Made by a program: the position numbers and the translations under genes. A DNA stretch of 64,000 nucleotides, from the NCBI GenBank assembly GCA_963738405.1, contig CAVTWJ010000001.1:96001-160000 (forward strand). The letters run 5' to 3'. The notes under the pieces are model-generated. The model saw only the letters and a list, made by a program, of their open reading frames with translations. It did no database searches and was not told the origin of the DNA. The DNA is from a candidate division FCPU426 bacterium. Lineage in GTDB: Bacteria; Oederibacteriota; Muellerivitia; Muellerivitales; Muellerivitaceae. Shown here one piece after another: positions 624 through 52,384 of this stretch. How positions within the stretch are numbered: position 1 is the first letter of the stretch; every line of letters starts with the position of its first letter.

Positions 624-1022
624 ATGAGTTTTACCTCACGAAATAACACCGACAACAGCCCGCCCATTCTTAAACCTTCCCATTTAACAACCGACGAAGA
701 AAATCTCGAAACCGGCGAAAGACTTTTCCGCGTTTTCGTGGAAAACGTCAAGGATTACGCCATTATCTTTCTGGACCCCCAGGGATTCGTGAGGACCTGG
801 AACGAAGGGGCCCGGAAATTCAAGGGCTACGAGAAATCTGAAATTATCGGCAAGCATTATTCCTGTTTTTACACGCCTGAGGACATCGCGGCCAACCACT
901 CGGCGGAATCGCTCAATTCCGCCTTTGAAAAGGGTTTTAAAGTGAAGGCGTTTTCCATAAAACGGCCTCATTTCCGTTTTAAGGGAAAGACCCGGGAGAT
1001 TCTTAATCGGAGGGATTCATGA
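624..1022 (+). pseudogene. Truncated PAS-domain protein (sensor fragment)
   Basis: LFRVFVENVKDYAIIFLDPQGFVRTWNEGARKFKGYEKSEIIGKHYSCFY is a typical PAS N-half; the PAC part (GWRxRKDG) is missing; GGAGG RBS before ATG 624. Confidence 0.6.
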
Positions 1023-3154
1023 GGGCTTCTGGGAAAAAAGTTTTTGGAAAATTCATTTGTAAAGCCTTGCTGACGTGCGTCCTTCTCAACCTTCCAATGA
1101 TATCCCGCGCGGATATGTCAAAGGAAACCGACGCCCAAACGCCCCAGGCTTCCGCCGGCGTTTCCACGCCCATGACCGATGAGACGCCTGTCGAAGCCGA
1201 ACCCACTAAAGATTTGACCCAATTAAGCCTGGAAAGCCTGGCCGGCCTGAACGTTCAGGTGGTATCGGCTTCCAAGAAGGCCGAATCGCTGCGGGATGCC
1301 ACCTCGGCCATTTTCGTCATCACCCAGGACGACATTCAACAAAGCGGCGCCCGGCATTTGGCGGACCTGTTTCGGATGGTGCCGGGCTTGCTGGTTTCCC
1401 GCGTGGACGCCAGCCAATGGACCGTGACGGCGCGGGGATTCAATTCGCTTTATAACGCCAATATGCTGGTTCTGATCGACGGCCGCAGCGTTTACCAGAC
1501 CACCTTTGGGGGCGTGAATTGGGATGAATGGGACATTCCCTTGGCGGATATCGACCGCATCGAGGTCATCCGCGGACCCGGCGGCACCTTGTGGGGGTCC
1601 AACGCCGTCAACGGCATCGTCAACATCATCACCAAGGATTCAAAAGCGACCCAGGGTTTTTACGCCGCCAGCCTGACCGGCAGCGACAACAATGACATGG
1701 CGTCCCTTCGTTGGGGCGGGAAGATGGGTGACGACCTTTTTTACCGGGTTTACGCCAAAACCGAGAACCAGGGGCCCTTTTCCGATCCGGAGGAACCCAC
1801 CGGCTCGGGGCAAGACCAGTGGACTTCCCAACAGGCGGGGTTCCGGGTGGATTGGCACGCGGAAAAGGACCTCCTCACCTTCCAGGGGGATTACCAGTTG
1901 ATCAATTCCTACCAGCCGGGAGTCGTTTTTAACGCCGCCACCTTGCAGTCCTACTCCTCGGATGACGATACGGTGGACAGGGACGCCCACTTGCTGGCGA
2001 ACTGGGTCCATACCTTTTCAGACGGCTCGGAGTTGGAATTGAAGTCCTATTACGACCAGATCGGCTTGTCCGTGCCCGACGGCCAGGATACCGTTTTGAA
2101 TACCCTCGACGTTGAATTTCAGCACCGGTTCCTTTTGAATGATTGGAACGAAGTCACCTGGGGCGGGGATTTCCGGAATGTTTCCGACGATTACAACACC
2201 CCTTACGCCAGTTATTATTTTCCCGAACAGGCCTCATTGAACACCTATGGCGGTTTCCTGCAGGACAAACTAACCCTCTCTTCCAACCTGCTTTACCTGA
2301 CGGCGGGGACCAAGGTGGAAAACAATCCCTATACCGGATCGGAATGGGAACCTTCGGGCCGGCTGCTCTTCACGCCCGATGCCAACAACAGTATTTGGGC
2401 GGCGGTCTCGCGAACCGTGGGGGTTCCCAGCCGCGCGGAGGAAAGCGTGGCTTTCTTCCAGCAGGGTTTTACGGCGCCGGGGCCGACCACCTTTTACGTG
2501 GCCCTGGCCGGAAACCCCAACCTGACGGCGGAGGATGTGCTGACCTACGAATTAGGCTATCGGACCAATCTGGCCCCCAAGGTCTCGCTTGATCTGGCGG
2601 CTTTTTACGACCGTTATGAGGGCATCATCACCGCCGGTTTCACCCAATTCAGCTTTCCCAATTATCCTCCCACGCCCATCGGGGGTTACTACGCCGCTGA
2701 ATTGCAGTCCTTTAACGCCGATGGCGGGGCGGTTTATGGGGCGGAACTCAGCTTGAAATGCCGGATCACGGACCAGCTCAACAGCGCCTGGGCCTACACC
2801 TATAACGGGTATGACGCGGCTTTCAATTCGGTTTCCAATATCTACATCGGGAACCCGCCGCCCCATCACATCGCGGATGGCCGCTTAAGCTGGGATGCCC
2901 TCCCGGGATTCCAGATCAACACCAGCCTCTATTGGGTGGACGCGACTTTTATCAATGACCCCACGGGACAATTTAACGGGGTTGTGGCCGCCTATTCCAT
3001 TTGGGACCTGGGAGCGACCTGGAAAGCCTCCTCCGAATGTGAAATCTCGGTTTGGGGACAGGATTTAGAAGGAACCCATACGGAAGCCTCCTCCTTCCTG
3101 GGCGGTTCCAGGCCCTCCCCCTCCGTCTATGGCCAAATGACCGTTCGTTATTAG
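1019..3154 (+). CDS. TonB-dependent receptor (plug + beta-barrel)
   Basis: Signal peptide; DLTQLSLESL; plug motifs LVLIDGRSVY and IDRIEVIRGPGGTLWGSNAVNGIVNIITK; C-terminal aromatic residue. Confidence 0.93.
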   Translation: MRASGKKVFGKFICKALLTCVLLNLPMISRADMSKETDAQTPQASAGVSTPMTDETPVEAEPTKDLTQLSLESLAGLNVQVVSASKKAESLRDATSAIFVITQDDIQQSGARHLADLFRMVPGLLVSRVDASQWTVTARGFNSLYNANMLVLIDGRSVYQTTFGGVNWDEWDIPLADIDRIEVIRGPGGTLWGSNAVNGIVNIITKDSKATQGFYAASLTGSDNNDMASLRWGGKMGDDLFYRVYAKTENQGPFSDPEEPTGSGQDQWTSQQAGFRVDWHAEKDLLTFQGDYQLINSYQPGVVFNAATLQSYSSDDDTVDRDAHLLANWVHTFSDGSELELKSYYDQIGLSVPDGQDTVLNTLDVEFQHRFLLNDWNEVTWGGDFRNVSDDYNTPYASYYFPEQASLNTYGGFLQDKLTLSSNLLYLTAGTKVENNPYTGSEWEPSGRLLFTPDANNSIWAAVSRTVGVPSRAEESVAFFQQGFTAPGPTTFYVALAGNPNLTAEDVLTYELGYRTNLAPKVSLDLAAFYDRYEGIITAGFTQFSFPNYPPTPIGGYYAAELQSFNADGGAVYGAELSLKCRITDQLNSAWAYTYNGYDAAFNSVSNIYIGNPPPHHIADGRLSWDALPGFQINTSLYWVDATFINDPTGQFNGVVAAYSIWDLGATWKASSECEISVWGQDLEGTHTEASSFLGGSRPSPSVYGQMTVRY

Positions 3155-3167
3155 AAAGAAGGGGAAT

Positions 3168-3713
3168 ACGAAAAACGCTAAAAATTATATTCTCGCTTTC
3201 CTTTTAACCGCGGGGATGCCGGTTTTGGGGCAGATTTCCGAATATGGGGTTAAGGCCGCTTACCTGTTCAATTTCGCCAAGTTTGTGGAATGGCCCGCCG
3301 GCGCTTTTGAAAATGAGGCCTCGCCGATTTTGATCGGAGTCCTGGGGGAAGACCCCTTCGGCGGGGAATTGGACAAGGCGGTGGAGGGAAAAAACGTAGC
3401 CGGGCGCTCCCTTCGGATCAAGCGTTTCGGCGATTTCGATGAAAACCAGGCTCCCCAATTGCGCAAGTGCCAAATTCTCTTTATCGCTTATTCCGAGGAG
3501 GGCAACCTGCCGGCCATTTTGAGGGCCCTCAACGGGGCCAGCGTGTTGACGGTTTCGGAAATCGAGGGATTTCCCCAGAAAGGCGGAATCATTCTCTTCG
3601 ACTTGGAAGGGGACCGGGTCACCCTCGGCATTAACCCCACTACCGCCCGAAGGGGAAATTTAATCCTCAACTCGAAACTGCTTCATGTGGCGAAAATTTA
3701 CGGCTCGGAGTAA
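3168..3713 (+). CDS. YfiR family (DUF4154) periplasmic protein
   Basis: SEYGVKAAYLFNFAKFVEWP, IGVLGEDPFG, SKLLHVAKI; first ATG at 3216, but the signal peptide extends upstream to an in-frame ACG at 3168. Confidence 0.88.
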   Translation, partial: TKNAKNYILAFLLTAGMPVLGQISEYGVKAAYLFNFAKFVEWPAGAFENEASPILIGVLGEDPFGGELDKAVEGKNVAGRSLRIKRFGDFDENQAPQLRKCQILFIAYSEEGNLPAILRALNGASVLTVSEIEGFPQKGGIILFDLEGDRVTLGINPTTARRGNLILNSKLLHVAKIYGSE

Positions 3714-3716
3714 TTC

Positions 3717-5120
3717 ATGTTGATCGTCAATTTCAAGAACATGCCGTTAAGAAAAAAAATATTAACCATCACCGTTATTTCGACCTCCGTTTCGCTGTTG
3801 ATGGCGTGCCTGTGTTTCTTTTCGTACGAAAGGATGACCTATCCTGAAACCCGGCTCCAAAGCCTTTCCGCTTGGGTTCAAATTCTCGGGGACAACAGCA
3901 CGGCGGCCTTGACGTTCAACGATAAAAAAACGGCGGATGAAATGTTGAAAACGTTGAAATCCAACCCCCATATCCTCCGGGCGTGCCTGTACGACGCCAA
4001 GGGGAAGGTTTTCGCCGAGTATGAAAAAGGCAACGTTTCGCCTTTTCCCGCCGCCGCCGGATACGCGCAAGCGGTCTACGCCGGGGGAACCCTCCGGGTT
4101 TTCCGGGATATTCTTTCAGGCGGGGACCGGGTGGGTTCCATCTACCTTGAACAGGATACCGAAGAGTTGAAATCCCGCCTGGCCACCTACGCGCTCATGG
4201 CCCTTATCATCGGCTTTCTGTCCTTCTTCGTTTCATTGACGGTCGCTTCCAGGCTCCAGCGCTATGTCACCCGGCCGCTTCAAAATATCGTGGAACGGAT
4301 GAAGGATATTTCCCGCGGCGAGGGAGACCTGACCAAACGCCTGGAGGCTTCCGGCAAGGATGAAATCGGCGATGTGGCGGAAGCCTTCAACGCTTTCGTC
4401 GGCAAATTGCAAACCGTGGCCGAGATGAAATTGGACCTGATCTCGGTGGTTTCCCACCAATTGAAGACCCCGGTGGCGGAAATCAACGGTTTTATCGAGA
4501 ACATGATGGAAGGCTTGGCCGGCGACTTAACCCTAAAACAAAAACAATACCTGGATGAAATGAGGCTGATCGGCCGGGAAAACTACCGGCTGATCGGCGA
4601 CCTTTTGAGCGTCAGCAAGATCGAAAGGGGCGTGGTTTCGGTGGCCCTGAAGAGCGTTTGGGCGAGGGAAGCGGTGACCCTGGCGGTCCGGGATTACGAC
4701 CAAACCATGCAGCAAAAGGGGTTAACCCTCCTACTGGAAGGAATGGATTTAAATGTCCATCTTTACGCCGACCGCGAAAAAGTGGTGGAAGCCCTGCGCA
4801 ACGTGTTGAACAACGCCATCAAATGCACGGACAAGGGTACGATCACCCTCCGAATCGGCAGCGAAGGGGACATGGGCGTGATTGAAGTCAAAGATACCGG
4901 CATCGGGATGGATGAGGCGACCCTGGGCCGCTTGTTCACCCAGAACCGGGTTTTGGGCAAGGAAGCCCACCGTTCCGGGGCGGGGCTGGGCCTTTATATC
5001 TCAAAGCATTTCATGAAGCTTCAAAAGGGCGACATCACGGTGACTTCGGAAGTGGGAAAGGGAAGCTGTTTCAAGCTGATGGTTCCCAAATTCAAGGAAT
5101 GGGAGGGGCCCGACGCATGA
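3717..5120 (+). CDS. Membrane sensor histidine kinase (YfiN-like periplasmic sensor, HAMP, HisKA, HATPase)
   Basis: Two TM segments, NSTAALTFND sensor motif, HAMP (GDLTKRL..DEIG), H-box SHQLKTP, N-box NVLNNAIK, DTGIGM, GAGLGL. Confidence 0.92.
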   Translation: MLIVNFKNMPLRKKILTITVISTSVSLLMACLCFFSYERMTYPETRLQSLSAWVQILGDNSTAALTFNDKKTADEMLKTLKSNPHILRACLYDAKGKVFAEYEKGNVSPFPAAAGYAQAVYAGGTLRVFRDILSGGDRVGSIYLEQDTEELKSRLATYALMALIIGFLSFFVSLTVASRLQRYVTRPLQNIVERMKDISRGEGDLTKRLEASGKDEIGDVAEAFNAFVGKLQTVAEMKLDLISVVSHQLKTPVAEINGFIENMMEGLAGDLTLKQKQYLDEMRLIGRENYRLIGDLLSVSKIERGVVSVALKSVWAREAVTLAVRDYDQTMQQKGLTLLLEGMDLNVHLYADREKVVEALRNVLNNAIKCTDKGTITLRIGSEGDMGVIEVKDTGIGMDEATLGRLFTQNRVLGKEAHRSGAGLGLYISKHFMKLQKGDITVTSEVGKGSCFKLMVPKFKEWEGPDA

Positions 5121-5704
5121 ATTCCAAGGGAACGATTTTAATCGTGGAAGACCAAGCGGGATTCCGCATGATTTACGAGGACCTTCTGGCCCATGAGGGG
5201 TACGCGGTCATCACCGCCGGGGACGGGGAACTGGGATGGGAAATGGTGAAAGAAAAAAAACCAAACCTGGTTTTGCTCGATTTGGGGCTTCCCAAGATGG
5301 ATGGGTTCGAGGTGCTCCGCCGGATGAGGGCCGACGCCGAAACGAAAGCCATACCGGTGATTATTTTTTCAGTGATGGGGGAGCCCAACGACATCAAAAA
5401 AGCCATGGAGCTGGGGGCCAACGACTACACCATTAAGGGTTTCTACACTCCCATGCAGATCCTCAGCAAGATCAAAAGCCAGCTCATCCAGATTGAACCC
5501 GTGCGAACGGTCTCGTCCTACAAAATAGGGATGAAAACGGGGAAGGATTCCGCCAAGTTACTGGCGGAAATGGGGCTCCAGGGGTGCCAGTGCCCCGATT
5601 GCGAGGTTGAAATGGAGCTGGAGTTGTTTCCGGATCATGTCCGCGCGGGAACCCACTGGTTCCACACTCGGTTGATTTGTCCACAGTGCGGGAAGCCGGT
5701 TTAG
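5117..5704 (+). CDS. Response regulator: receiver plus C-terminal Cys-rich (zinc-ribbon-like) domain
   Basis: ILIVED, LLDLGLPKMDG, GANDYTIK; tail CQCPDC...CPQC; ATG 5117 overlaps the kinase stop (ATGA). Confidence 0.88.
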   Translation: MNSKGTILIVEDQAGFRMIYEDLLAHEGYAVITAGDGELGWEMVKEKKPNLVLLDLGLPKMDGFEVLRRMRADAETKAIPVIIFSVMGEPNDIKKAMELGANDYTIKGFYTPMQILSKIKSQLIQIEPVRTVSSYKIGMKTGKDSAKLLAEMGLQGCQCPDCEVEMELELFPDHVRAGTHWFHTRLICPQCGKPV

Positions 5705-6289: not shown

Positions 6290-6991
6290 TCACCAAACCC
6301 CTAGAACCAGCCGATACCTCACTTTTTTTCGATAGGCCGTATAGCCCTTTAATCCCTTCATCAGGGCCTTTTCCTCACCCAGAATGCGCAGGCAAAACAA
6401 CAGGGTCAAAAAAACGCCCATCATCAAACCGGCCTTGGAATTCAACAGCAGGGGAACGCAGACAAACAACAAGATGCCGCCCAGGTACATGGGGTGGCGG
6501 ATCATGCCGTAAACCCCGGTAGTGACGACCTTTTGCTTGCGCTCTTTTTGAATGCGGATCAAGGGCGAAACGAAACTGTTGTCCGTATAGGAACGGTACG
6601 AAAAAAAGGCGGAAGGAATCAGCCCCAGCGCCCCCAGCCACTCCACCCAAAGGGGAAAGGGCTCAAACCAGTGAAACCTTTTCGCGTCTAAGGGAATGAT
6701 CACGCACCAGGCGATGAATAGGATCATCACGATGGGAACCATCACCTTGTCCCAGCCTTCCTGGTCGCCGGTGTTGGGGTTGCGCAGTCTTTCCCTTAGC
6801 AGACCGGGGTCGTGGAGTACCAGGTAGCGGATGGCGATAAAGGAAAGCCCGAAGTACCAAAGGGTGAAAACCCAAGCCTCGGGCCAAAGCCAGTCTCCCG
6901 AACAACCCAGGATGAGCCCGGGAAAAAGAAGAAGACTGAAAGTCATGTAGAGGATCTGGCCTAAGGTCAGAACCGGTTTGGTTTTTTTCAC
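6290..6991 (-). CDS. Isoprenylcysteine carboxyl methyltransferase (ICMT/PEMT) family membrane protein
   Basis: VVTTGVYGMIRHPMYLG, RILGEEKAL, GY..Y..KVRYRL; GTG at 6991 after AAGGAG. Confidence 0.85.
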   Translation of the reverse strand: MKKTKPVLTLGQILYMTFSLLLFPGLILGCSGDWLWPEAWVFTLWYFGLSFIAIRYLVLHDPGLLRERLRNPNTGDQEGWDKVMVPIVMILFIAWCVIIPLDAKRFHWFEPFPLWVEWLGALGLIPSAFFSYRSYTDNSFVSPLIRIQKERKQKVVTTGVYGMIRHPMYLGGILLFVCVPLLLNSKAGLMMGVFLTLLFCLRILGEEKALMKGLKGYTAYRKKVRYRLVLGVW

Positions 6992-7080
6992 TGTTGCTCC
7001 TTTGGCGGGGTTGCGGATAATCCAGGCCATTATGGACCTTAAACTATGGAACTCGAGATAATGAGGTTAAAATAAACCCG

Positions 7081-7545
7081 ATGGAAATCACTATTTCTTC
7101 CAAACTTTCCCCGGATGAAGTTCTCAAAAAGATAAAGATGAGGGTTGATCCCCGGGGGCTTTTTTTTGGTTCAATGTTTGGTTCCCTGCCTTTTGTGGGA
7201 AGTTTTAAAGGAAATCACTTCAAGATTCGCAAGAGAATCTTTTATAACAATTCCTTTAGTCCGATTTTTTACGGGGAAGTCGTTTCGAGTCCAAATGGTT
7301 CCGAAATAAAAGGTCGTTTTCATATTTATCTACCCGTCCGGATTTTCATGGGAATTTGGTTTGGCGTAATAGGATTTGGATCCATTTCGATGTGGTTGAA
7401 TAACTCAGGGCATGTAAAAAATATAAATGATGTATGGCCACCTTTCGCAATGGTTGCTTTGGGTTACGCTTTTATGAAATTCGGCCAGTGGCTCGGTAGA
7501 GGTCATTACGCCGCCATCCAAGAATACTTGCGGGCTTGCGTATAA
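7081..7545 (+). CDS. Hypothetical membrane protein
   Basis: 154-aa ORF with two C-terminal TM segments; TAAAAT 7 nt upstream of ATG. Confidence 0.7.
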   Translation: MEITISSKLSPDEVLKKIKMRVDPRGLFFGSMFGSLPFVGSFKGNHFKIRKRIFYNNSFSPIFYGEVVSSPNGSEIKGRFHIYLPVRIFMGIWFGVIGFGSISMWLNNSGHVKNINDVWPPFAMVALGYAFMKFGQWLGRGHYAAIQEYLRACV

Positions 7546-7700
7546 ATTTAAAAAAACTGTTGTCTTTTTGTCCGATTGAAATGTTAAACCTGCGGCCGGC
7601 CTCCAAAAAAATATTTCCGGTTCATTTTCCGTTTTTATTATTTTCTTCTCTGGTATTAACCTACCCCCATCAGTATCAAATTTTATGATGGAGGTGCCCC

Positions 7701-9878
7701 ATGGCATCAGCTGATACGCAGGTTGTTGTACCGCCGGATATCCGCATCATCCCCACCGCCGACTTGTTCGTCCCAGATTGGAACCCACGGAAAGTTATCA
7801 TCCCTTGGGACTTAGCCAACCTGGTGGCCTTTATGAAGGCGGGTGGTAAACCGCCCCGGATCACCGTTTGGAAAGGTCCTCGGGCCGAGGCCACAAGCCA
7901 AGGCCCAGGGTTGAGGGATGCCGGTTCCATAGGGGAACCGGCCAAATGGGCGATCATCGAGGGTCAAATGCGATTGCTGGCCGCTCAACAGGTGGGCTGG
8001 ACCCACATGGAAGCTGAGGTGGTGGATTGCACCCTGGCAGAGGCTAAGAAGCGGGCCTTCACTTCCAACAACCAGAACAAACCCTTCTGGCTTGATACAG
8101 TCCTAGCCATTGAGGCTCTCTATAAAGATCGGAAGGCCAATGGGGGTACCCAGGAGGGCTTGGGGGACGAATTGGGGGTATCCCAGGCCCGGATTAGTTA
8201 CGCACTCACTATTTCAGAGGCTCTTAACCCGGCTTTAAGGGAATTAATTTATAACAGTGTTATAAAATCTGAGGGCGATTGGCAGGTTAAGGAGCGCCCG
8301 GTCCTCCTTCTCACCGCTATAAAAGACCCCAAATCCTTTAATAAAGCCTTAAATGTGCTCATTGACCGCCATTTAACCATGGGTATGGTCGCCAAACTGG
8401 TCAAATGGGTTCAGGATGGCAATGACCCCGATGGGTTTGGCAAGGCCCCCGCCAAAGCAGATTCGAATGCCCCTCAAGTTGACCCTACGCCATCTGTGCC
8501 GCCCCCCCAAGCCCCGGCGGAGGCATCAACCCAAAATCCAAAAGGGGAGCCAGTTAGCCTCAAACAAGCCGGGGCGGAAGCCTTCCAAGAAGTGAAAACC
8601 CATGTCGCCCATACCCGGTCTCAGGTCAAATCGGGTTCCAAACCCACCCCTAGCCAAAGCCTCCAGCTGATCGGCCATGTCGCCCTGGCGATCGGCAAAT
8701 TCCTACTAAAGGCCCTGGTGTGGGCCTGGGACAAGTTTTGGAAGGCGGTCAAAAGCTCCGCACATGCGGTTTGGGGACTTCTAAAGCGGGTAATAGGCAA
8801 AACGGGGGAAACCCTTCTGCAACTGGGCCTGTTGGTCCTTCTTGGTTGGATGGCTTATAGCTACTTCACCCACCATAACTTTGGCCTGGGGTGGCTTAAA
8901 GATCACCTCTTTCCAAACAAACCCCAAAAGGTCGAACAGGCGAATAATCCGCCCCCCATACCGGTAGTCGAAAAACCAGCGGCGAAAGGGCCCGCGCCCC
9001 AAAGGCCAACAACCCACAAACCCACCCTCCAAACTAACTTGCCGCCCCAATCCTATCTCCCCAGCCATGCTTGGCAGGCATCGGACGAGACCATAGAAAC
9101 GCTGGAGGCTGAGATAGCCTCAATCCCCCGGCCTTCCACGATCAAGGATTATCCCGTCACGCCCGATGGCGCCATCAACCCCGACATGGCGGGGCGCCGA
9201 ACCGGTGATATCCAAAACCCCGATAAATATTCAATGAAGGTGGGGAAGGACACCCAAAAGATCCTCACCCTCATGCCCAACATGTCCAGCCTGGTCCTGA
9301 CCTATCAGGGGGACAACCCGCTCGGAGGCCTTTTGGGCGGGCCCAACAAGATGGAATTTTATTGGGAGGAGGTACGGGCCATCCATACCTGCCAAGTGGA
9401 TGTGATTGCCAACCCTCCCCATACCCTCTACCAATGCTCCCTCCTCGTTTCAGGGTTGAAGGTGCCCTTCACCCTCCAATGCGCGACCAAGGAAGATTTG
9501 GCGCACCTGGTTTCGGCGCTTGAATTTTGGATTCGAAACGCGCAAGGAGGGAAGAATGCGCCTGTGGGCGGGTTGCCCTACCTGCATCAAGGCGTGTTGT
9601 TAGGCGAAGGGGACCGGGTGGATGGGGAGTGGGAAGAAAGCCCGGTGATGAGTTCTGGTCTGATCTCGGGCGACCGCCTTTGGGGTGTGGACCAAATCAC
9701 CAGGACCCAGTCCGGCACGAAAGAACTGGAGGATCAACTGCAAAACTTAAATTCGGGAAGCCACATCCTTTTCGCCATCAATCCAAGCGAGTGGGACAAG
9801 TTGGCAGGAAGCTGGAACAAGCGAGGCGTGAAACCCTACAACCCGAAACTGGAGAAGCTCCAATTACTGGTTCAGTAA
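7701..9878 (+). CDS. ParB/Srx N-terminal domain + HTH protein with predicted TM anchor and C-terminal PH-like/PDZ-like region
   Basis: WNPRK, IIEGQMRLLAA (GxxRxxA), HTH TQEGLGDELGVSQARISYAL, TM LLQLGLLVLLGWMAYSYF, Pro-rich linker; GGAGGT RBS. Confidence 0.8.
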   Translation: MASADTQVVVPPDIRIIPTADLFVPDWNPRKVIIPWDLANLVAFMKAGGKPPRITVWKGPRAEATSQGPGLRDAGSIGEPAKWAIIEGQMRLLAAQQVGWTHMEAEVVDCTLAEAKKRAFTSNNQNKPFWLDTVLAIEALYKDRKANGGTQEGLGDELGVSQARISYALTISEALNPALRELIYNSVIKSEGDWQVKERPVLLLTAIKDPKSFNKALNVLIDRHLTMGMVAKLVKWVQDGNDPDGFGKAPAKADSNAPQVDPTPSVPPPQAPAEASTQNPKGEPVSLKQAGAEAFQEVKTHVAHTRSQVKSGSKPTPSQSLQLIGHVALAIGKFLLKALVWAWDKFWKAVKSSAHAVWGLLKRVIGKTGETLLQLGLLVLLGWMAYSYFTHHNFGLGWLKDHLFPNKPQKVEQANNPPPIPVVEKPAAKGPAPQRPTTHKPTLQTNLPPQSYLPSHAWQASDETIETLEAEIASIPRPSTIKDYPVTPDGAINPDMAGRRTGDIQNPDKYSMKVGKDTQKILTLMPNMSSLVLTYQGDNPLGGLLGGPNKMEFYWEEVRAIHTCQVDVIANPPHTLYQCSLLVSGLKVPFTLQCATKEDLAHLVSALEFWIRNAQGGKNAPVGGLPYLHQGVLLGEGDRVDGEWEESPVMSSGLISGDRLWGVDQITRTQSGTKELEDQLQNLNSGSHILFAINPSEWDKLAGSWNKRGVKPYNPKLEKLQLLVQ

Positions 9879-10012
9879 TTGGAGTCCTCAAACCGTGTAC
9901 TTCGTTTTGTGAACGAAGTACAGAGATGGGATTATCTGTGCCGTAGCCGTTGTTTCTTTGAGGTCGCAAATTGCGACCTCAAGTTGGTCTAAGGTCGCAA
10001 TTTGCGACCTTA
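9858..10012. repeat. Cluster of four perfect palindromes
   Basis: 9858-9884 CTCCAATTACTG-gtt-CAGTAATTGGAG; 9896-9922 TGTACTTCGTT-ttgtg-AACGAAGTACA; 9958-9982 TTGAGGTCGCAA-a-TTGCGACCTCAA; 9990-10012 TAAGGTCGCAA-t-TTGCGACCTTA. Confidence 0.9.
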
Positions 10013-10099
10013 AAAATCAGAATGATGAAAGGACCTGATAAACCCAAGAAACGGATCGGGTTTCTGGAGGAAAGCAAAGGTAGTTACCGGGTAAGATAA
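9952..10099 (+). pseudogene. Remnant of an ORF6N-domain DNA-binding protein gene (internally deleted)
   Basis: Encodes VSLRSQIATSSW and, in another frame, LRSQFATLKIRMMKGPDKPKKRIGFLEESKGSYRVR-stop; both resemble ORF6N motifs (LRSQxATxx and C-terminal PxKxxIGF). Confidence 0.6.
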
Positions 10100-10142
10100 G
10101 GTTAAGTTGAGCAAAACACCTTAACTCTGGCGGGGAACATTC

Positions 10143-10619
10143 ATGTCGCAAAGCCTTCAAATATTCGCCCCGCCGGAATATACCCTGGCCAATTACTTTT
10201 TCCCTAAGCTGCAAGGCGCCCCTTGGAATTTGTCCCTGGTTAAAAATCAAATAACGGTTAGGGAAGAAATTGACCGTACCACAGCCGGGGTTTTGGAAGA
10301 TTATTTGAATAAGCCGAGCGTCTTTTTGAATTTTGAGGGTTTTGTCAATTTTCAGGATATGGCGGACAATAAAATTCACGACCTGCTATTTGAGCCCCCT
10401 TCCCCCGACAACAAATTATTTTCGCTGGATGAAAATTGGGGCACGACCGCCCATTTTCAATACGGTTTCAGCACCATGACTCGGCAAAGGTCGGTGCTGA
10501 CCCGCAAAGTGATCATCAAAATGTTCAACGACCCTAAAATTGTAGTGGCTACTGATTTAGATTGGGTGGGCACGGGGGCGGACTTTGTTGAGGGCTTGGG
10601 AAAGGGCCTTCAGTTCTAG
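10143..10619 (+). CDS. Hypothetical protein
   Basis: 158-aa ORF with GGGG(A) RBS; no motif recognised. Confidence 0.65.
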   Translation: MSQSLQIFAPPEYTLANYFFPKLQGAPWNLSLVKNQITVREEIDRTTAGVLEDYLNKPSVFLNFEGFVNFQDMADNKIHDLLFEPPSPDNKLFSLDENWGTTAHFQYGFSTMTRQRSVLTRKVIIKMFNDPKIVVATDLDWVGTGADFVEGLGKGLQF

Positions 10620-10690
10620 TCTGCGTTCCGAGTATTTTTCACGGCGGTGGTTTTTGATGTTGTTAGAAAAACCAGAAAGGCAGGCAAACC

Positions 10691-11017
10691 ATGGAATGGT
10701 TAAATGATTTCGCTTATTTTTGGGGAGGCGCTTTTCTCACCAACGCGATTCCGCACTTTGTGAGCGGGCAAATGGGGCATCCCTTTCAAAGCCCCTTCGC
10801 GAAACCGCCCGGCCAAGGGCTTTCCTCATCTACCGTGAACGTCTTGTGGGGGTTTTTTAATATCGTGGTGGGTTACCTGCTTCTCGTTCATGTCGGCAAT
10901 TTTGATTTGCGCTCTATCCAACATGTATTTTCAGCGGGTTTAGGTGTGCTTTTGATGTCGCTGGTGAGCGCGCGCGGTTTTGGGCGCTTTAATGGCGGAA
11001 ACTCCCCGGAAAAATGA
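10691..11017 (+). CDS. Conserved hypothetical membrane protein
   Basis: GAFLTNAIPHFVSG..G.PFQSPFAKPPGQGLSSSTVNVLWG; three hydrophobic segments. Confidence 0.8.
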   Translation: MEWLNDFAYFWGGAFLTNAIPHFVSGQMGHPFQSPFAKPPGQGLSSSTVNVLWGFFNIVVGYLLLVHVGNFDLRSIQHVFSAGLGVLLMSLVSARGFGRFNGGNSPEK

Positions 11018-15008: not shown

Positions 15009-16013
15009 TTATAAGTCGAAACCCAACCCGGCCTGGAAGGGAAGATAGGTAGAGGTTGTTCCGCCGTTCAGGTCGTAGAGCAGGTCAACCTTCATCTCCA
15101 ACAATAGATTCAGCGCCTGGGCGATAGGAATCTTCAACCCCACCCCGGCTTCTCCCACTGCGCAGGTTTGGGTGTTATCGGGAAGGCTGTGGGACGCGAC
15201 GGTATTGCCCGAGACGGTTTCGCTGTCCATTCCCGTATTAGAAACAAAGGCGACCCCCAAGCCCGCCAAAAGATAGGGCCCCAGTTCCGAACCATAGGCT
15301 GTCAGTTTCGCCGAACCCAGAACCTGCAAACGGGTGTTGGTCTGGGACAGGACATCCTGGCCCGGCGATGTGGAGGGGGAGCTTGGCGGCACCGAAGTAT
15401 AGGTGTTATCCGTAACGACCTGGGAGTTCAGGGCGTAAAAGCCCAAGGAACCGCCCAACGCTAAGTCGGGTGACACCGAGCCATAACAAGCGACAGAGCC
15501 ACCCCAGCCCAGGCCTTGCCCCCCATCCAAACCTTCCTGGCCACCCAAGGCGACATCCAACTCCACATTTGAATGGGAAGAGGTTTTGGCGACGGGCGTG
15601 GGGGTGGGGGTGCTTTCGGGAGTGGCGTTGGAGGGCACCGGGAGATCAATTCCTGGATTATCAAATCCAGAGCCATCGGCTTGGGGTGTCGGGCTAGGTG
15701 CCCCAATTCCTTTTTCGGGAATTGGGACAACCAAAGTAGAGCCCTCGCCTTGTGGGCTCGGGACCCCCATCCCTGTATTTTGGATGGGGGCAATCAAACC
15801 GTTGCCCTCCACTTGAGGTGTCGGGCGAGATGTAGGGGCCTGCGAAGCGGGAAACGTAGTCCAGACATGGCCGATCTCAGGCACAGGTGTGAGGGGATGG
15901 GGCATGGCGGGAAGTGCCAAGTCGGAAGCCGAGGCGCCTGAGTCCGTTTGGGCGAACAGGGCACAGGGAACGGCGGTGTATATAAGAGGGATAAGCCAGA
16001 GGAGCTTTTTCAT
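15009..16013 (-). CDS. Outer-membrane beta-barrel protein with Pro-rich N-terminal extension
   Basis: Signal peptide, Pro/Thr-rich segment, alternating strands (PYLLAGLGV, GEAGVGLKI), C-terminal GLGFDL. Confidence 0.7.
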   Translation of the reverse strand: MKKLLWLIPLIYTAVPCALFAQTDSGASASDLALPAMPHPLTPVPEIGHVWTTFPASQAPTSRPTPQVEGNGLIAPIQNTGMGVPSPQGEGSTLVVPIPEKGIGAPSPTPQADGSGFDNPGIDLPVPSNATPESTPTPTPVAKTSSHSNVELDVALGGQEGLDGGQGLGWGGSVACYGSVSPDLALGGSLGFYALNSQVVTDNTYTSVPPSSPSTSPGQDVLSQTNTRLQVLGSAKLTAYGSELGPYLLAGLGVAFVSNTGMDSETVSGNTVASHSLPDNTQTCAVGEAGVGLKIPIAQALNLLLEMKVDLLYDLNGGTTSTYLPFQAGLGFDL

Positions 16014-47982: not shown

Positions 47983-48061
47983 CTTTTGAGACAAAGAAGG
48001 TAATTTTAATGATGATTTGGGCTTATAAATTGCGGATATGCGAAAGGCGATCGCAAAAACC

Positions 48062-51000
48062 ATGAAGAAAATCCAATTATCGCTCATCCTTTTTTTGACC
48101 GGTTTCTTTTTCGGCTTGTCCCCCCTTAAGTTGCTAGCCGTAACTTATAGCTATACTAATTATGTTCCCATTCCAACTTTAATGGCGACACCGCAATATT
48201 GTCCCAGTGATGCTGCGATTACCTACCAAGAAAACCAACCTACGACTTACCCCTTACCGACATGGGAAACCGCTTGCGGTTATGCCCAGGGGAGCTACGA
48301 TCCAAATAATTTTGCGGCCATTGATAGCGATAGTTTTGGGGATACGGCTGCAAAGAATGCGGTGGGAGGAGGACTTGGAGGCTTTCCTTGTGGAGCATGT
48401 GCAGCGTTGCATAATTCCAGCAATGGTGTTGGGGTGACGCTTGTTATTATCGATGAATGTCCCCAGGGCTCAGGGGGTGGTAATAATAATACATATAACT
48501 GTTGGGTTGGGTCTTATCACTTAGATATGTCTCAACAAGCCTATACGACCTTGGCGGGGGGAGGATCCTTCCCGTCGAATAATGCGGTTTCCAATTTGAC
48601 GGGTTCAACCGTAACGTGGCGTTTTGTTCAGTGTCCCAATAGTTTGTTAACACATAATAGCTCTTCTGGTGATATCTCCTACTATTGGCAAAACGGAGCA
48701 AAATCCACTTATAACCCGCTGATGTTTTTAGATTTTGCTTTCCCGCTTAAGTCGGTTTATTACAGCACCAGTTCTACAGGACCTTTTACGACTTCCCTTC
48801 CAAGGGATACTCCCAGTACGCAAAACTTTTGGGGAGGGAATAGCAATCCTACTTTTCCATCCGGCAACCTATATTTTCAGCTGAATAGTTACGAAACGAG
48901 CGTAGGTCCTGTAACTGTAAATGTTAATAATACTGGGGGCTATACTCCCCAGACCTCAGCAAATTCTGGAAATCCGGCTCCTGCGGTGTCCAACCAGCAG
49001 TTCCCAAATTGTATGACCGGTCCCACCTACACATTTACAAACACCCCAACAATTGGTTCACCCACGGCGACACCTACAAAAACACTGACTGTAACACCGA
49101 CTGCCACTAATACTGCGGTTGGTCCGCCCCCAGGTTGCCCCTATTACATTTATAACGGGGCTTCACCCCATGCCCTAGCCAATATAAAGGGTTGGTATTC
49201 GGCTAATGGCCCGGTTTCATCGCTTGTTGAAAATGCCACTGCGGCCCTGGATGGGGAATCGGTTGGGTTGGATTTTGGCGCTTCCGTGACCGCAAATGGT
49301 TATTACGCTGGTTTTGGTCTTAATTGGGCCAACTATTCTGGAGCCCCTGCTTCGCCTTACCAACCATTAGTGAACATTGGCAGTGGAAGTATTTATACGA
49401 CTTTGGTGTTCTATATTGAGAATCCAAACGCATCAGCAACTACCTTAATAGCCACGTTGGCGGATTATGAAGGCGGCGCCGCTTATTCATCTGTTCCCGT
49501 TACCTTTACGATTGGCGCAGGTTCCAATGTCGAGCAAATACCCTTGTCGAAATTTACCGCAAGCGGAGCAAGTTTCACGGCGGCGAATATAGGCGAACTT
49601 GATATACAAGAAACGAGCATGAGTGCTGCGGCTCAGTCGGTGTCCTTGTATTTCGGCGGATTCTCTTTCTATGGAACTTGTCCCACCTCTACGCCCACAT
49701 CCTCGCCAACGCCACTTTTTTCACCGACTCCTACTGGCACTCCCACGCCTATCCCCGGTTGTGAGTATCTTTTCTATAGCGGATCTTCTCCCCATGCTAT
49801 GGCCAATGGTTCGATTGGGACTTCGGTTCCGGCTGGTGGGACCGGAACAGTGGTTGAAAACACTACGGCTAAATTGAATGGTGAGACTAATGGCTTGGAC
49901 TTCCAGGCGGCTATTCCAGCGAGTGGATTTTATGCCGAAATGATGTTCAATTGGGCGGGTTACAACGCAGTACCCGTTTCGCCTCTCCAACCCCTTGTGA
50001 ATTTAAACAGCGGTCTTACCTATCTCGAGTTTTATATTGAAAATACTACCGCCGCCGATTCTCCCATGACTTGGAGCGTGGATTTGGCTGATTATGGTGG
50101 GGGTGGAGCTTCTGGCGTAACTGCTTCCGTTCCAGTGACTTTTGTCGTTACGGGGACAGGTGTCCAAAAAATTGATTTGCCCCTCTCCGATTTTGCGACA
50201 GGTGGAGCGAGTTATAGCGTTTCGCAAATTGGAGAAATAGATCTTGAATGGCATTCTTCGGCGGCAGCCCAAAACGCTACGGTTTATGTTGGCGGCATAG
50301 GGTTTTATGGAACGTGTCCGACTAATACACCAACCCCTACCGCGACATCCACAGCGACCCGCACATCAACACCAACACCAAGCCCTACTGCCACAGCCAC
50401 TGGAACACCGACGCCTTCCTTTACCGCAACGCCGACCAAAACGAGTACACCTACCGGAACACCAACCTCGTCACCCACCGCAACCCCTACTTCTACCGCC
50501 ACTGGAACGCCTACTCCTTCGTTTACGGGTACCCCCACCAAAACAAACTCTCCTACGGGGACTCCCACAACCTCTTCTACCAGCACCCCTACCGGAGCCT
50601 TTACGGCAACATCCACTCCCAGCTTTACAGTTACAAATACTAGAACATCAACCTCCACCAACACGGCGACGACAGTAGCTACATCCACCCCAACCTCTAC
50701 CCCAAGCCTTACTGGTACCAGCACTAAAACCTCAACCCCTTTGAATACGGCGACGAGCACGGCTACTGGTGCCTCCACTTCCACCTCTACACCCACTCCT
50801 CAATTTACTTTCACTGGAACTCCGATCTCGACTGCTACTGGAACTAGTACGAAAACCTCGACCCCGACTAGTACCGCTACCAGCGTTTCGACTTCTACGC
50901 CTACACCCATATTCACCGCGACTTCTACACGAACTTCAACCGCCATTCCCACCGCAACCTCAACACCTACCGGCACCAATACCCCAAGCTTAACATTTAC

Positions 51001-52384
51001 GGGAACCCCCACTAGAACCCCGACTAGCACCAGCACTAAGACTCCAACCCCCACGTCAACATGGACTTATACTTCCACGTTTACTTCAACCGACACAATC
51101 ACACAAACCCCCACCATTACCTCAACGCCAACGATCACTGATACGCCCCAACCGGGTGCCGTTACGATTATCTTTGCCCCTGGCCCGAGCCAACCCTCAA
51201 ATGCGACTACCTTGGCCGGTTCTACAAATGTGGCTGATCTTCAATTTGTCTTAACAAATACTGGTGCCACATCGGTGACCGTGACCAATTTAACCGTTAC
51301 CGATTCAGGTTCTGGAAATGTTTCAACCGGGGTCTCAAACATCACGTTCACCCAAAACGGGTCATCGTTGGGTAATGCCACCTTCTCAGGGAGTAACGCA
51401 ACCCTAGGGTTGGCGGATATTATTCCCGCGGGTGGAAGCGTAACGATCCTTGTCTCTTATAACTATACGAATTCTGCGGTTGGAAACTATATCGGGACCC
51501 TGACAGGCGCGACTGCCTCGAACGGAGTTCCGGCGGTTATTAATAATCTTCCGATTACAGGGGCTACTATTACCGTACTACAGCCGACGAACACACCTAC
51601 GAACACCTCTACTCCCACGGCAACATCGACGGTTACTAATACGCCTAGCTTTACTGCAACGCCGACCTCCACCTCTACTTCCAGCTATACCAATACTCCT
51701 GCCAATACGGCCACAGCTACCTTTACGGGAGTATTTACTAGCACTGTGACCAAAACACCAACCGCAACGCTTACCGCTTCATCTACGGGTACTCCTACAT
51801 CCTCTAACACAGCTACCAACACGCCGACCATCACGTCCACTCCCCAGTTCAGCTATACGCCTTCTTATTCGCCGACGGCCACCAACACTCCGGTCTTTAC
51901 GGCCACATCCACATGGACTGGGACCTCTACGGCTACAGGAACATCTACCTCCAGCCCCACTCACACCACTTCACCTACCTTTACCTTCACACCAACCATA
52001 ACCAACACCCCGACTTTGACGGGAACCTCCACCTTTACGCCTTCTCCTACTACTTCCCCTACTCCTACGGCCTCTTTTACACCGACCCCCATTCTTATAC
52101 CTGTGGTTCTAAATCCTTTCCCGAATCCAACTACTGGTCAACCCATTGAATTGGATGTCGCACTTCCGGGCGCCTCGACCGTGAGATATACGGTTTACAC
52201 CCTAGCCTTCCGAAAAATCGCTTGGGGAGGACCTTCGGGCCAAGTTTCGAACTCTGTGGCCTTAAAATGGAATCTTCAGGACAATTACGGGTTCAAGGTG
52301 GCTGACGGACTCTACTATGTCAGGGTCGAAATCATAGGCCCGCAAAATGCCACGAAGATATTTAAAGTGATAGTTCTGCGCTAA
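48062..52384 (+). CDS. Large secreted expansin-like (DPBB) protein with two repeated carbohydrate-binding-like domains, Thr/Pro-rich linkers and a C-terminal sorting-like domain
   Basis: Signal peptide; TACGY, FAAID, CGAC, IIDECP, HLDMSQQAY, VTWRFVQCP; two GC..Y.G.SPHA.AN...YGTCPT repeats; PFPNP...VADGLYYV tail (alternative start 48038). Confidence 0.85.
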   Translation: MKKIQLSLILFLTGFFFGLSPLKLLAVTYSYTNYVPIPTLMATPQYCPSDAAITYQENQPTTYPLPTWETACGYAQGSYDPNNFAAIDSDSFGDTAAKNAVGGGLGGFPCGACAALHNSSNGVGVTLVIIDECPQGSGGGNNNTYNCWVGSYHLDMSQQAYTTLAGGGSFPSNNAVSNLTGSTVTWRFVQCPNSLLTHNSSSGDISYYWQNGAKSTYNPLMFLDFAFPLKSVYYSTSSTGPFTTSLPRDTPSTQNFWGGNSNPTFPSGNLYFQLNSYETSVGPVTVNVNNTGGYTPQTSANSGNPAPAVSNQQFPNCMTGPTYTFTNTPTIGSPTATPTKTLTVTPTATNTAVGPPPGCPYYIYNGASPHALANIKGWYSANGPVSSLVENATAALDGESVGLDFGASVTANGYYAGFGLNWANYSGAPASPYQPLVNIGSGSIYTTLVFYIENPNASATTLIATLADYEGGAAYSSVPVTFTIGAGSNVEQIPLSKFTASGASFTAANIGELDIQETSMSAAAQSVSLYFGGFSFYGTCPTSTPTSSPTPLFSPTPTGTPTPIPGCEYLFYSGSSPHAMANGSIGTSVPAGGTGTVVENTTAKLNGETNGLDFQAAIPASGFYAEMMFNWAGYNAVPVSPLQPLVNLNSGLTYLEFYIENTTAADSPMTWSVDLADYGGGGASGVTASVPVTFVVTGTGVQKIDLPLSDFATGGASYSVSQIGEIDLEWHSSAAAQNATVYVGGIGFYGTCPTNTPTPTATSTATRTSTPTPSPTATATGTPTPSFTATPTKTSTPTGTPTSSPTATPTSTATGTPTPSFTGTPTKTNSPTGTPTTSSTSTPTGAFTATSTPSFTVTNTRTSTSTNTATTVATSTPTSTPSLTGTSTKTSTPLNTATSTATGASTSTSTPTPQFTFTGTPISTATGTSTKTSTPTSTATSVSTSTPTPIFTATSTRTSTAIPTATSTPTGTNTPSLTFTGTPTRTPTSTSTKTPTPTSTWTYTSTFTSTDTITQTPTITSTPTITDTPQPGAVTIIFAPGPSQPSNATTLAGSTNVADLQFVLTNTGATSVTVTNLTVTDSGSGNVSTGVSNITFTQNGSSLGNATFSGSNATLGLADIIPAGGSVTILVSYNYTNSAVGNYIGTLTGATASNGVPAVINNLPITGATITVLQPTNTPTNTSTPTATSTVTNTPSFTATPTSTSTSSYTNTPANTATATFTGVFTSTVTKTPTATLTASSTGTPTSSNTATNTPTITSTPQFSYTPSYSPTATNTPVFTATSTWTGTSTATGTSTSSPTHTTSPTFTFTPTITNTPTLTGTSTFTPSPTTSPTPTASFTPTPILIPVVLNPFPNPTTGQPIELDVALPGASTVRYTVYTLAFRKIAWGGPSGQVSNSVALKWNLQDNYGFKVADGLYYVRVEIIGPQNATKIFKVIVLR

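Follow-up and report, generated by a model that had tools for sequence, protein, structure and literature searches.

To our knowledge, the characterised cytidine triphosphate (CTP) switches of the ParB family, namely ParB, Noc, KorB, VirB and BisD, are all soluble or peripheral proteins. Noc itself is a protein of 283 residues. A study of Noc (PMC8429893) shows that CTP binding is lost with the substitution R89A and reduced with N121S, and that neither variant spreads or is recruited to the membrane. The ParB-CTPase fold is able to bind ATP or GTP besides CTP, as shown in a 2025 preprint that surveys ParB-CTPase fusions (10.1101/2025.10.10.680097). In this paper we analyse a gene whose product joins a ParB/Noc-type head to a predicted membrane segment and to a C-terminal module of PH-like and PDZ folds. 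It lies in a window of 64,000 nucleotides, positions 96001-160000 of contig C1 (G000:C1), from the 3.18-Mb, 23-contig genome (estimated completeness 90.7%) of a candidate division FCPU426 bacterium. We describe the folds of the protein, its family, the conservation of its motifs and the expansion of its paralogues, and from these we infer its topology, its binding of DNA, DNA target, nucleotide and ligand, and a coupling across the membrane.

The architecture noticed in a preliminary description of the window is real, well folded and recurrent. The gene and the parts of its product are as follows, in window coordinates.

7701..9878, forward strand: gene for the ParB-like membrane protein, P0001 (open reading frame and translation of 725 residues; Shine-Dalgarno sequence; N-terminus aligned with homologues)
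7728..8084, forward strand: ParB N-terminal domain of CTPase fold, residues ~10-128 (family profile, Foldseek on the AlphaFold2 model, PHROG, motifs)
8088..8435, forward strand: ParB/Noc-type helix-turn-helix (HTH) DNA-binding domain, residues ~130-245 (Noc alignment, Foldseek, Pfam in relatives, AlphaFold2)
8436..8648, forward strand: Pro/Ala/Ser/Gln linker of low complexity that includes one helix (287-310), residues 246-316 (AlphaFold2 confidence, poor conservation)
8649..8804, forward strand: Lys/Trp-rich amphipathic juxtamembrane helix, residues 317-368 (AlphaFold2 helix, hydrophobic moment)
8811..8870, forward strand: predicted transmembrane segment, residues 371-390, TLLQLGLLVLLGWMAYSYFT (hydropathy, insertion scale, relatives)
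8871..9053, forward strand: Pro-rich linker from the membrane segment to the C-terminal module, residues 391-451 (sequence)
9054..9584, forward strand: N-terminal extension and PH-like beta-sandwich with a C-terminal helix, residues 452-628 (AlphaFold2, VIA-align, Foldseek)
9573..9875, forward strand: PDZ domain, residues 625-725 (VIA-align, Foldseek)

The reading frame begins with an ATG at 7701 and ends with a stop codon at 9876-9878, giving 725 residues in both the list of open reading frames and the translation. An AT-rich gap of 155 nucleotides precedes the gene, a Shine-Dalgarno sequence GGAGG lies at 7690-7694, and the N-terminus is in register with the homologues P0003 and P0005 when the three are aligned.

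With moderate confidence, we read the protein as a ToxR-like DNA-binding regulator that crosses the membrane once, N-in/C-out, or else as a regulated tether between DNA and membrane, in either case with a ParB head. The head, with its nucleotide-binding fold and HTH, would be cytoplasmic and would bind specific DNA at the membrane, serving as a nucleotide-binding switch or scaffold with greater probability than as a fast CTPase. The Lys/Trp-rich helix would lie along the inner membrane face and continue into the single transmembrane segment, and the Pro-rich stalk would carry the PH-like and PDZ module on the periplasmic side, where it may bind a peptide or an envelope partner. The protein would thus work as a one-component regulator of the ToxR/CadC type, or as a regulated tether, in which the ParB head replaces the winged helix.

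The ParB/Noc-type head and its nucleotide motifs

Residues ~10-245 are predicted to form a ParB/Noc-type head, and the family profile removes doubt about this assignment. Taken alone, the protein matches the NCBIfam model of Noc (TIGR04285) at E 9.1e-5 and 21.9 bits against a cut-off of 315, and that of ParB (TIGR00180) at E 5e-4, far under its cut-off. The same single sequence finds Noc 7ng0 in the PDB at E 0.0014 over residues 82-237, the PHROG family 'ParB-like partition protein' at E 6.4e-10 over residues 13-185, and HTH_3 in Pfam at E 0.014; Pfam ParB_N has no match in it. A profile of 82 relatives finds Noc 7nfu at E 5.4e-37, Spo0J 1vz0 at E 1.2e-27 and Myxococcus xanthus ParB 7bnk at E 3.6e-27, among thirteen distinct PDB sequences at E <= 0.001. 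Pfam recognises ParB_N in 68 of these 82 relatives and HTH_ParB in 19.

The fold agrees with the profile. An AlphaFold2 model of residues 1-400 has a mean predicted local distance difference test score (pLDDT) of 84.9, with values above 90 across most of residues 10-250, including the helices of the HTH region at 130-238, and with 43-69 in the linker at 250-290. Foldseek matches this model to Noc and ParB structures at E 8.8e-11 to 1e-10. Its match to 6y93, the DNA-binding domain of Noc, has a TM-score of 0.79, normalised to the target, and a root-mean-square deviation (rmsd) of 2.9 Å, and the sequence alignment to Noc runs through residue 237. The ParA-binding motif LG-R/K-GL was not found in residues 1-30, nor did Pfam find an OmpR-type winged helix (Trans_reg_C) in the protein. 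An N-terminal amphipathic helix like that of Noc is likewise missing, as the N-terminus, MASADTQVVVPP, is not amphipathic.

The nucleotide-binding motifs are recognisable as WNPR (box I), EGQMR (box II) and SNNQN (box III). Four positions, G88 and R91 in box II, N123 in box III and W130, are identical in all 82 aligned sequences. Among 81 sequences, the first position of the box I N-P-R, asparagine in our protein, has N in 75 and Q in 6, and the proline and the arginine are each kept in 76 of 78. When aligned with the PDB sequences, R91 and N123 fall on the arginine of the GERR motif and the asparagine of the ENLQR motif of Noc, and the first arginine of GERR is a methionine in our protein. 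R91 and N123 would then be the equivalents of Noc R89 and N121, where R89 is placed as the second arginine of GERR by way of the ParB equivalents. In ParB, loss of the ENLQR glutamate or of the box I glutamine stops hydrolysis; the Foldseek matches include, by their PDB titles, the M. xanthus ParB mutants Q52A and E93A. Hydrolysis is doubtful in our protein because the ENLQR glutamate is a serine and the glutamine of QPR an asparagine, and we suggest that the head retains nucleotide binding with slow or absent hydrolysis. Since the binding arginine and asparagine are kept and the hydrolytic residues are replaced, a nucleotide-binding switch or scaffold is likelier than a fast CTPase.

The same replacements could be seen as a sign that the head has left DNA altogether and instead binds a protein partner, in the manner of RodZ or PadC, or acts as an enzyme like sulfiredoxin or SerK. 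PadC has ParA as its partner, the HTH of RodZ binds MreB, and RodZ has the same layout of HTH, transmembrane segment and periplasmic part. The family profile also matches sulfiredoxin, at E 2.9e-10, and PadC, Srx and SerK use the fold without DNA clamping, as described in the fusion survey (10.1101/2025.10.10.680097). We nevertheless consider a head without DNA binding quite improbable: the match to Noc covers its whole HTH/DNA-binding domain, beyond the nucleotide-binding fold, and HTH-only paralogues of our protein sit behind phased repeats with TTTC...GAAA arms like those of parS and of the Noc-binding site (NBS).

The membrane region, the PH-PDZ module and the family

AlphaFold2 draws residues 317-391 as a single continuous helix. 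Windows of 18 residues starting at 321-363 have a hydrophobic moment of 0.34-0.50 and a low mean hydrophobicity, with Lys or Trp every few residues. The moment is 0.10-0.16 in residues 369-392, where the insertion score is best. The segment 371-390 is the best hydrophobic window of the protein (Kyte-Doolittle 1.47, calculated by hand; summed insertion score 2.4). The only hydrophobic windows are 323-341 and 371-389, and neither is N-terminal. Almost all of the 65 long relatives that carry the module (64) have a hydrophobic segment at the equivalent position. Depending on the threshold, one segment is found in 34-42 of them, two in 10-15, three in 6-13 and four in 1-7. Where there is a single segment, Lys and Arg in the 15-residue flanks total 101-118 on the N-terminal side against 50-61 on the C-terminal side, roughly 2:1. 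By the positive-inside rule these flanks favour an N-in/C-out orientation, although the analysis is crude and the two-segment minority real. The stalk that follows has a median length of 80 residues in the family, and 48% of it is P, S, T, A or Q.

A monotopic or hairpin anchor would leave the PH-like and PDZ folds in the cytoplasm, where the protein might serve as an adaptor to lipids or proteins at the inner membrane face, as such domains usually do in eukaryotes. This would fit the second, marginal hydrophobic window at 323-341, the relatives with two or four segments, and the long helix of the AlphaFold2 model, in which no clear span is visible. But the window at 323-341 is amphipathic, as shown by its two lysines and its high moment (0.44-0.50), the single-segment class with its 2:1 charge bias is the majority, and a Pro/Ser/Thr-rich stalk of such length would be typical of linkers that span the envelope. 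We therefore regard this topology as unlikely, and keep the single-pass, N-in/C-out arrangement as our preferred one.

The C-terminal module is confidently modelled. For residues 440-725, an AlphaFold2 model based on an alignment of 86 sequences has a mean pLDDT of 94.5 and a predicted TM-score of 0.89. We compared it with 48,161 chains using VIA-align. Residues 625-725 match the PDZ domain of HtrA 1y8t with a Z-score of 9.7 (rmsd 2.0 Å over 78 residues), followed by CtpB 4c2c (Z 9.1), the D1 protease 1fc6 (Z 8.8) and an isolated PDZ domain, 6bxg (Z 8.5). PDZ domains of DegQ, DegS and RseP are among the matches too, and the best PDZ matches are periplasmic proteases. Foldseek superposes the domain on CtpA 8sxg at an rmsd of 3.8 Å over 97 columns. 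Residues ~487-628 resemble PH-like domains, namely the FERM domain of FAK (6cb0, Z 8.6), SSRP1 (6l1e, Z 8.0) and the PH domain of ASAP1 (5c6r, Z 7.7), and Foldseek assigns PH and FERM domains to the region with a probability of 0.99-1.00. DSSP finds strands at 71-155 and then a helix at 158-175 in the numbering of the model, in keeping with the seven-stranded PH-like sandwich and its capping helix. The best ESM Atlas score, 0.87, is a lead only and agrees with PDZ and PH.

In sequence the PDZ is harder to see. Pfam PDZ has no match in residues 440-725, the Pfam models PDZ, PDZ_2 or PDZ_6 are found in 8 of 25 C-terminal fragments of relatives at E 0.0008-0.023, all under the cut-off, and a profile of the module finds PDZ chains in the PDB at E 0.07-0.3. 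Many positions of the module are nearly or fully invariant (G515, W555, H562, C594, L603, S605, P626, Y627, Q630, W644, S647, P648, W661 and L680), and G631 is fully invariant in the 86-sequence alignment. Seven of those in the PDZ domain (P626, Y627, Q630, G631, W644, S647 and P648) may map to its putative carboxylate-binding loop.

These results can be set against the preliminary description, all of whose quoted sequence strings occur in the translation. Its ParB/sulfiredoxin-type head with an HTH is borne out by the family profile and by the fold, and both its amphipathic Trp/Lys helix and its hydrophobic span are present. The PH-like and PDZ-like modules that it proposed are supported by the confident model and the structural matches; its two sequence patterns land on the last PH strands with their capping helix and on the helix-strand core of the PDZ. 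Two claims hold in part. A CTPase was proposed, of which the conserved CTP-binding arginine and asparagine stand and the hydrolysis is doubtful. The true transmembrane span with extracytoplasmic domains agrees with hydropathy and the positive-inside rule, which are its sole basis, and is qualified by the relatives with two segments. A membrane-tethered DNA-binding protein, with the domain calls holding by profile and fold, stays the best reading.

The protein had been called an orphan, and this needs correction. A phmmer search over 1.84 billion cluster representatives returned relatives in 290 clusters at E <= 0.001, 90 of them at E <= 1e-30, so that the family comprises at least 290 clusters. 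The genome itself encodes 16 ParB-like membrane-type paralogues, 15 found by phmmer and one on contig C16, which have the head and membrane region in common and differ in their C-terminal parts; six have the PH-PDZ module. The diversity of these C-terminal parts suggests that they are sensor-like. The genome also holds one canonical ParB elsewhere (open frame of 294 residues, 190.5 bits to TIGR00180), so partition itself is covered.

Of 30 other genomes in the same taxonomic family, 7 have the module; a search of 68 genomes from 22 other families of the phylum found it in none. Up to 17 matches occur per genome, and the distribution is patchy within genera (2 of 3, 1 of 3 and 1 of 4 genomes). 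A search of a genome-contig collection with the single protein found no relative. A search of sequencing runs listed no RNA run and gave only small shares, in three runs of soil metagenome from a single study, and the contigs in the read layout span only parts of the gene.

Head and module are also found apart, the pattern that the preliminary description had named as the sign of an accidental recent fusion or a misassembly; a pseudogene belongs with these explanations. Among 64 other long proteins with the module, 15 match our protein from within its first 60 residues and so have the full head, 20 align from a point past residue 60 (nine of those from about residue 69-84), and 29 have no detectable match to the head; 59 relatives match the head only. 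The repeat element inside the gene, described below, points the same way. Yet the full architecture from head to PDZ recurs in at least 15 distinct clusters of less than 50% identity, for which reason we see an old modular family and not a misassembly, and the separate halves are benign. Five other paralogues on long contigs repeat the architecture. The reading frame of the gene is uninterrupted, the insertion keeps it, and the two halves are modelled with confidence. To the extent that sequences can show it, a recent fusion, misassembly or pseudogene is refuted, and we give it hardly any probability. The family appears to be modular, and its full architecture old and recurrent.

The in-frame repeat element, candidate DNA sites and surroundings

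The ParB domain is interrupted by a repeat that is found throughout the genome.

7869..7943, reverse strand: in-frame repeat copy within the ParB domain, in reverse orientation (alignment gap, covariance model, palindrome, consensus fold)

It encodes residues 61-81 (21 residues or 63 nucleotides, 7881-7943), a loop before box II. The homologues P0002 and P0003 lack these residues, and P0005 has three tandem copies of them; residues 64-74 have a pLDDT below 50. The in-frame element is the cause of the missing Pfam ParB_N match. The element is about 65-75 nucleotides long and has two hairpins. One is the palindrome GCCGGTTCC-N5-GGAACCGGC, which is strongly conserved; in the stem of the other, the pairs change in a compensatory way among 11 copies (for instance GC 6/AU 4/CG 1 at one position and GC 6/CG 3/AU 2 at another). 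A covariance model of the element scores the copy in our gene at E 2.5e-15 and finds 35 copies in the genome at E < 1e-4. Of these, fourteen fall within nine ParB-like paralogues from the phmmer search and one within the ParB-like gene of contig C16, giving 15 of 35 in genes that make up ~1% of the genome. The other copies are intergenic or in frame in open reading frames that by eye resemble a helicase, QueC, a GNAT acetyltransferase, an esterase and a membrane glycosyltransferase. The helicase is UvrD/AddA-like (G000:C18:83648-87028), and in the QueC-like frame (G000:C22:69277-70047) the element lies between conserved cysteines near the C-terminus. A second, weaker copy in the window (15701-15774 and 15791-15831) is antisense in the open reading frame 15009-16013, which encodes a Pro/Thr/Ser-rich protein with a signal peptide.

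The copy in our gene is oriented opposite to most copies. It still encodes A-G-S-x-x-E-P-A, since the main palindrome reads the same from either strand. The peptide signature is present in 18 of 153 family proteins, as AGS..EPA or as ADS..ESA and never mixed, so that a compensatory change of bases within the stem can be traced in the proteins. Elsewhere in the taxonomic family 28 of 30 other genomes contain the element, including genomes without the PH-PDZ module, and in several of them it is again inside such genes.

Rickettsia palindromic elements (RPE) are palindromic repeats that are in frame and translated. The element shares with them that it is short and palindromic, in frame within several unrelated genes and translated; it differs in being shorter (with two hairpins), in belonging to another phylum and in its concentration in ParB-like genes. 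We read it as an RPE-like translated selfish repeat. It provides a clear example, from outside Rickettsia, of a palindromic repeat that is translated in frame. Its enrichment in ParB-like genes may reflect tolerant linkers or a putative binding site for their products. A 23-bp palindrome private to ParB-like genes was also considered, and the covariance search ruled it out by finding copies in unrelated genes, which is why a private parS is now only one of these two readings.

Other candidate sites flank the gene, and arrays are found upstream of some paralogues.

7614..7631, forward strand: pair of TTTCCG boxes 12 nucleotides apart, ATATTTCCGGTTCATTTTCCG, a candidate operator (sequence; similar pairs at paralogues)
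7568..7577, forward strand: TTGTCCGATT, a motif upstream of several paralogues (match with up to 2 mismatches)
9858..10012, no strand assigned: four perfect palindromes at 9858-9884, 9896-9922, 9958-9982 and 9990-10012 (palindrome scan)
L011:5807-5971 (C9), L012:8177-8316 (C12) and L013:8112-8273 (C14): arrays upstream of PH-PDZ paralogues without the ParB N-domain

The left TTTCCG box resembles an NBS half-site and is a putative binding site. Similar box pairs are located upstream of the paralogues C6 and C23_8188, and TTTCCG is the core of the array with a period of 21 bp upstream of C12. The motif TTGTCCGATT recurs with up to 2 mismatches at -110 to -136 of C1, C5, C23_146116, C22_49033 and C22_114980 and at -335 of C9. 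It is preceded about 10 nucleotides earlier by TTGC-like bases, and may be a putative shared promoter or operator element. A further palindrome, GGAGGCAATTGCCTCC, has no full site in the upstream regions of the paralogues.

At the 3' end of the gene, the palindromes have arms of 11-12 nucleotides; the stop codon lies within the first, and the last two hardly differ in sequence. Perfect palindromes of such size number 152 in the genome, and four of the five in the window are those at 9858-10012. The palindrome at 9953-9982 is seen again in contigs of soil metagenomes, where its flanks are different. In several paralogues the stop codon is likewise embedded in a palindrome, with TAA or TAG in the left arm. 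These sites may be terminators or putative binding sites. On the palindromes, Rfam gave sub-threshold matches of miRNA type only.

Five paralogues without ParB_N (C9, C12, C14_238826, C4 and C14_125320) each have their own repeat array directly upstream. The three arrays that were measured have a period of 21-22 bp and ~6-7 copies. The unit of the C12 array, ATTTCCGTTGAAA, has TTTC...GAAA arms as in parS and NBS, which we compared using the sequences given in the methods of PMC8429893. No such array was found at any of the 11 ParB_N-bearing paralogues or within 6900-10700 of the window. Paralogues with and without the nucleotide domain are a natural experiment on what the ParB N-domain contributes to DNA loading.

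The arrays resemble centromeres, and together with the head they raise the question whether the protein is a constitutive DNA-membrane tether, a Noc analogue for nucleoid organisation or occlusion whose PH-PDZ module only positions or oligomerises it and conveys no signal. Noc is the closest relative of the head in both sequence and structure, Noc recruits DNA to the membrane (PMC8429893), and the amphipathic helix with the hydrophobic segment would make the anchoring permanent. We find this rather unlikely, since sixteen paralogues with differing outer parts look more like a sensor family, the patchy distribution within genera argues against a core role in the cell cycle, and the match to the Noc model stays at 21.9 bits against 315.

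The preferred regulator or regulated tether could be taken further. In a tentative and doubtful extension, proteins of this kind would form a new class of transducers or couplers between chromosome and envelope, in which a periplasmic PH-PDZ peptide sensor controls how an integral-membrane, nucleotide-gated clamp of ParB/Noc type loads onto, or resides at, specific chromosomal sites, phased arrays compensate for the lost nucleotide domain, and the palindromic element may supply loading sites, in an NBS-like network that a mobile repeat has spread.

The gene is surrounded by ordinary chromosomal genes. Upstream, at 1019-5704, lie consecutively a TonB-dependent receptor, a YfiR/HmsC-like protein, a CHASE8-HAMP histidine kinase and a response regulator; downstream are small open reading frames without a family, an NHL-repeat protein, NorB and others. 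The preliminary description had noted that no parA and no canonical parS are nearby, and this holds: there is no ParA-type family in the 60 scanned of the 63 greedily called open reading frames, and no canonical parS with up to 2 mismatches in the whole window. At 3 mismatches two parS matches occur in the window against 0.29 in shuffles. With PADLOC neither the gene nor any of its five small neighbours falls in a defence family, PHROGs has no match for the neighbours, and the counts of a promoter and terminator scan were not above those of shuffles. Elsewhere in the window, an open reading frame of 1448 residues at 48038-52384 has no Pfam family at E <= 1e-5; its region has a strongly negative GC skew (-0.32 at 50001-52000) and a lowered G+C content.

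Weighing the reading and comparison with known systems

Several of our findings weigh against the reading as a membrane regulator or tether with a ParB head. The nucleotide site departs from ParB at two positions: S122 takes the place of the ENLQR glutamate, where the relatives have S in 38, D in 33 and E in 1 of 82 sequences, and the box I glutamine is replaced by asparagine. Past the HTH, Pfam has no match at E values up to 1, and the canonical C-terminal dimerisation domain of ParB is missing, with no replacement seen in the analysis. The transmembrane call is borderline, with a Kyte-Doolittle value of 1.47 on crude scales, and the two segments of 10-15 and the four segments of 1-7 of the 65 relatives would place the module in the cytoplasm. 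The Z-scores of the PH-like domain (7.7-8.6) lie within what VIA-align terms the 'common' range and can be taken as evidence at the level of the fold, and the PDZ is sub-threshold by sequence. No perfect palindromes were found downstream of the genes of four relatives in other genomes, so that the candidate sites are not conserved there. Finally, apart from scattered weak pairs, no gene neighbourhood is kept among the 15 paralogues, and for this reason there is no regulon that we could name.

In our literature search we found no description of an architecture of ParB head, membrane span, PH and PDZ. The main text of the 2025 fusion survey (10.1101/2025.10.10.680097) contains neither 'transmembrane' nor 'PDZ', and its supplements may list such proteins among those called 'single-domain, long'.

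Of the known systems, Noc is the best match in sequence and fold for residues ~10-245 (7nfu, 7ng0, 7ol9 and 6y93). Both proteins have the arginine and asparagine of the Noc R89 and N121 positions and a membrane-binding element, and neither has a partner ParA. In contrast to our protein, Noc is peripheral, its 10-residue N-terminal amphipathic helix binds the membrane only with CTP, and it has the ParB C-terminal dimerisation domain. Our protein has neither that helix nor that domain and carries instead a predicted span after the HTH and ~330 residues with PH-like and PDZ folds; its box III glutamate is a serine, and its score is far from the Noc cut-off.

With ToxR, CadC and VtrA the protein would share its predicted layout, in which a cytoplasmic DNA-binding domain at the N-terminus is followed by a juxtamembrane linker, a single span and a ligand-binding domain in the periplasm; paralogues are diversified in both. 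The DNA-binding domain of ToxR-like regulators is an OmpR-type winged helix, whereas here it is a ParB/Noc head with a nucleotide-binding fold, and the PH-PDZ module is unrelated to the sensor domains of ToxR and CadC. The likeness to ParB, KorB, VirB and PadC consists of the ParB_N fold, the box II arginine, the box III asparagine and the HTH. The protein differs from these in that it lacks a ParA-binding motif, an adjacent parA, a canonical parS and a dimerisation domain, in the replacement of the hydrolytic glutamate and glutamine, and in its predicted span and extracytoplasmic module.

The PDZ domains of periplasmic proteases (HtrA/DegP/DegS, CtpA/CtpB and RseP) are the best match for the end of the module, with Z 8.1-9.7 and an rmsd of 1.9-2.7 Å. 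The family consensus SPxDKAGLxLGD resembles what we take to be the SPAxxAGLxxGD-like stretch of the HtrA PDZ. However, our protein has no protease domain, its similarity is below the Pfam thresholds and a PH-like domain precedes its PDZ.

By analogy, the protein would act most like Noc and ToxR/CadC, yet by the features that define each of them it belongs to neither: it scores far below the Noc cut-off and lacks the N-terminal amphipathic helix of the one and the winged helix of the other. It belongs to a many-copy family that is found in one group of uncultured soil bacteria only, and each step of its function is inferred. If our reading is true, an integral-membrane version of the ParB switch, with folded domains beyond the membrane, would connect envelope and DNA directly by means of a nucleotide-gated clamp, a logic of signalling or tethering that is undescribed for the ParB fold, and the small ToxR-like 'periplasm to promoter' set would gain a new DNA-binding head.

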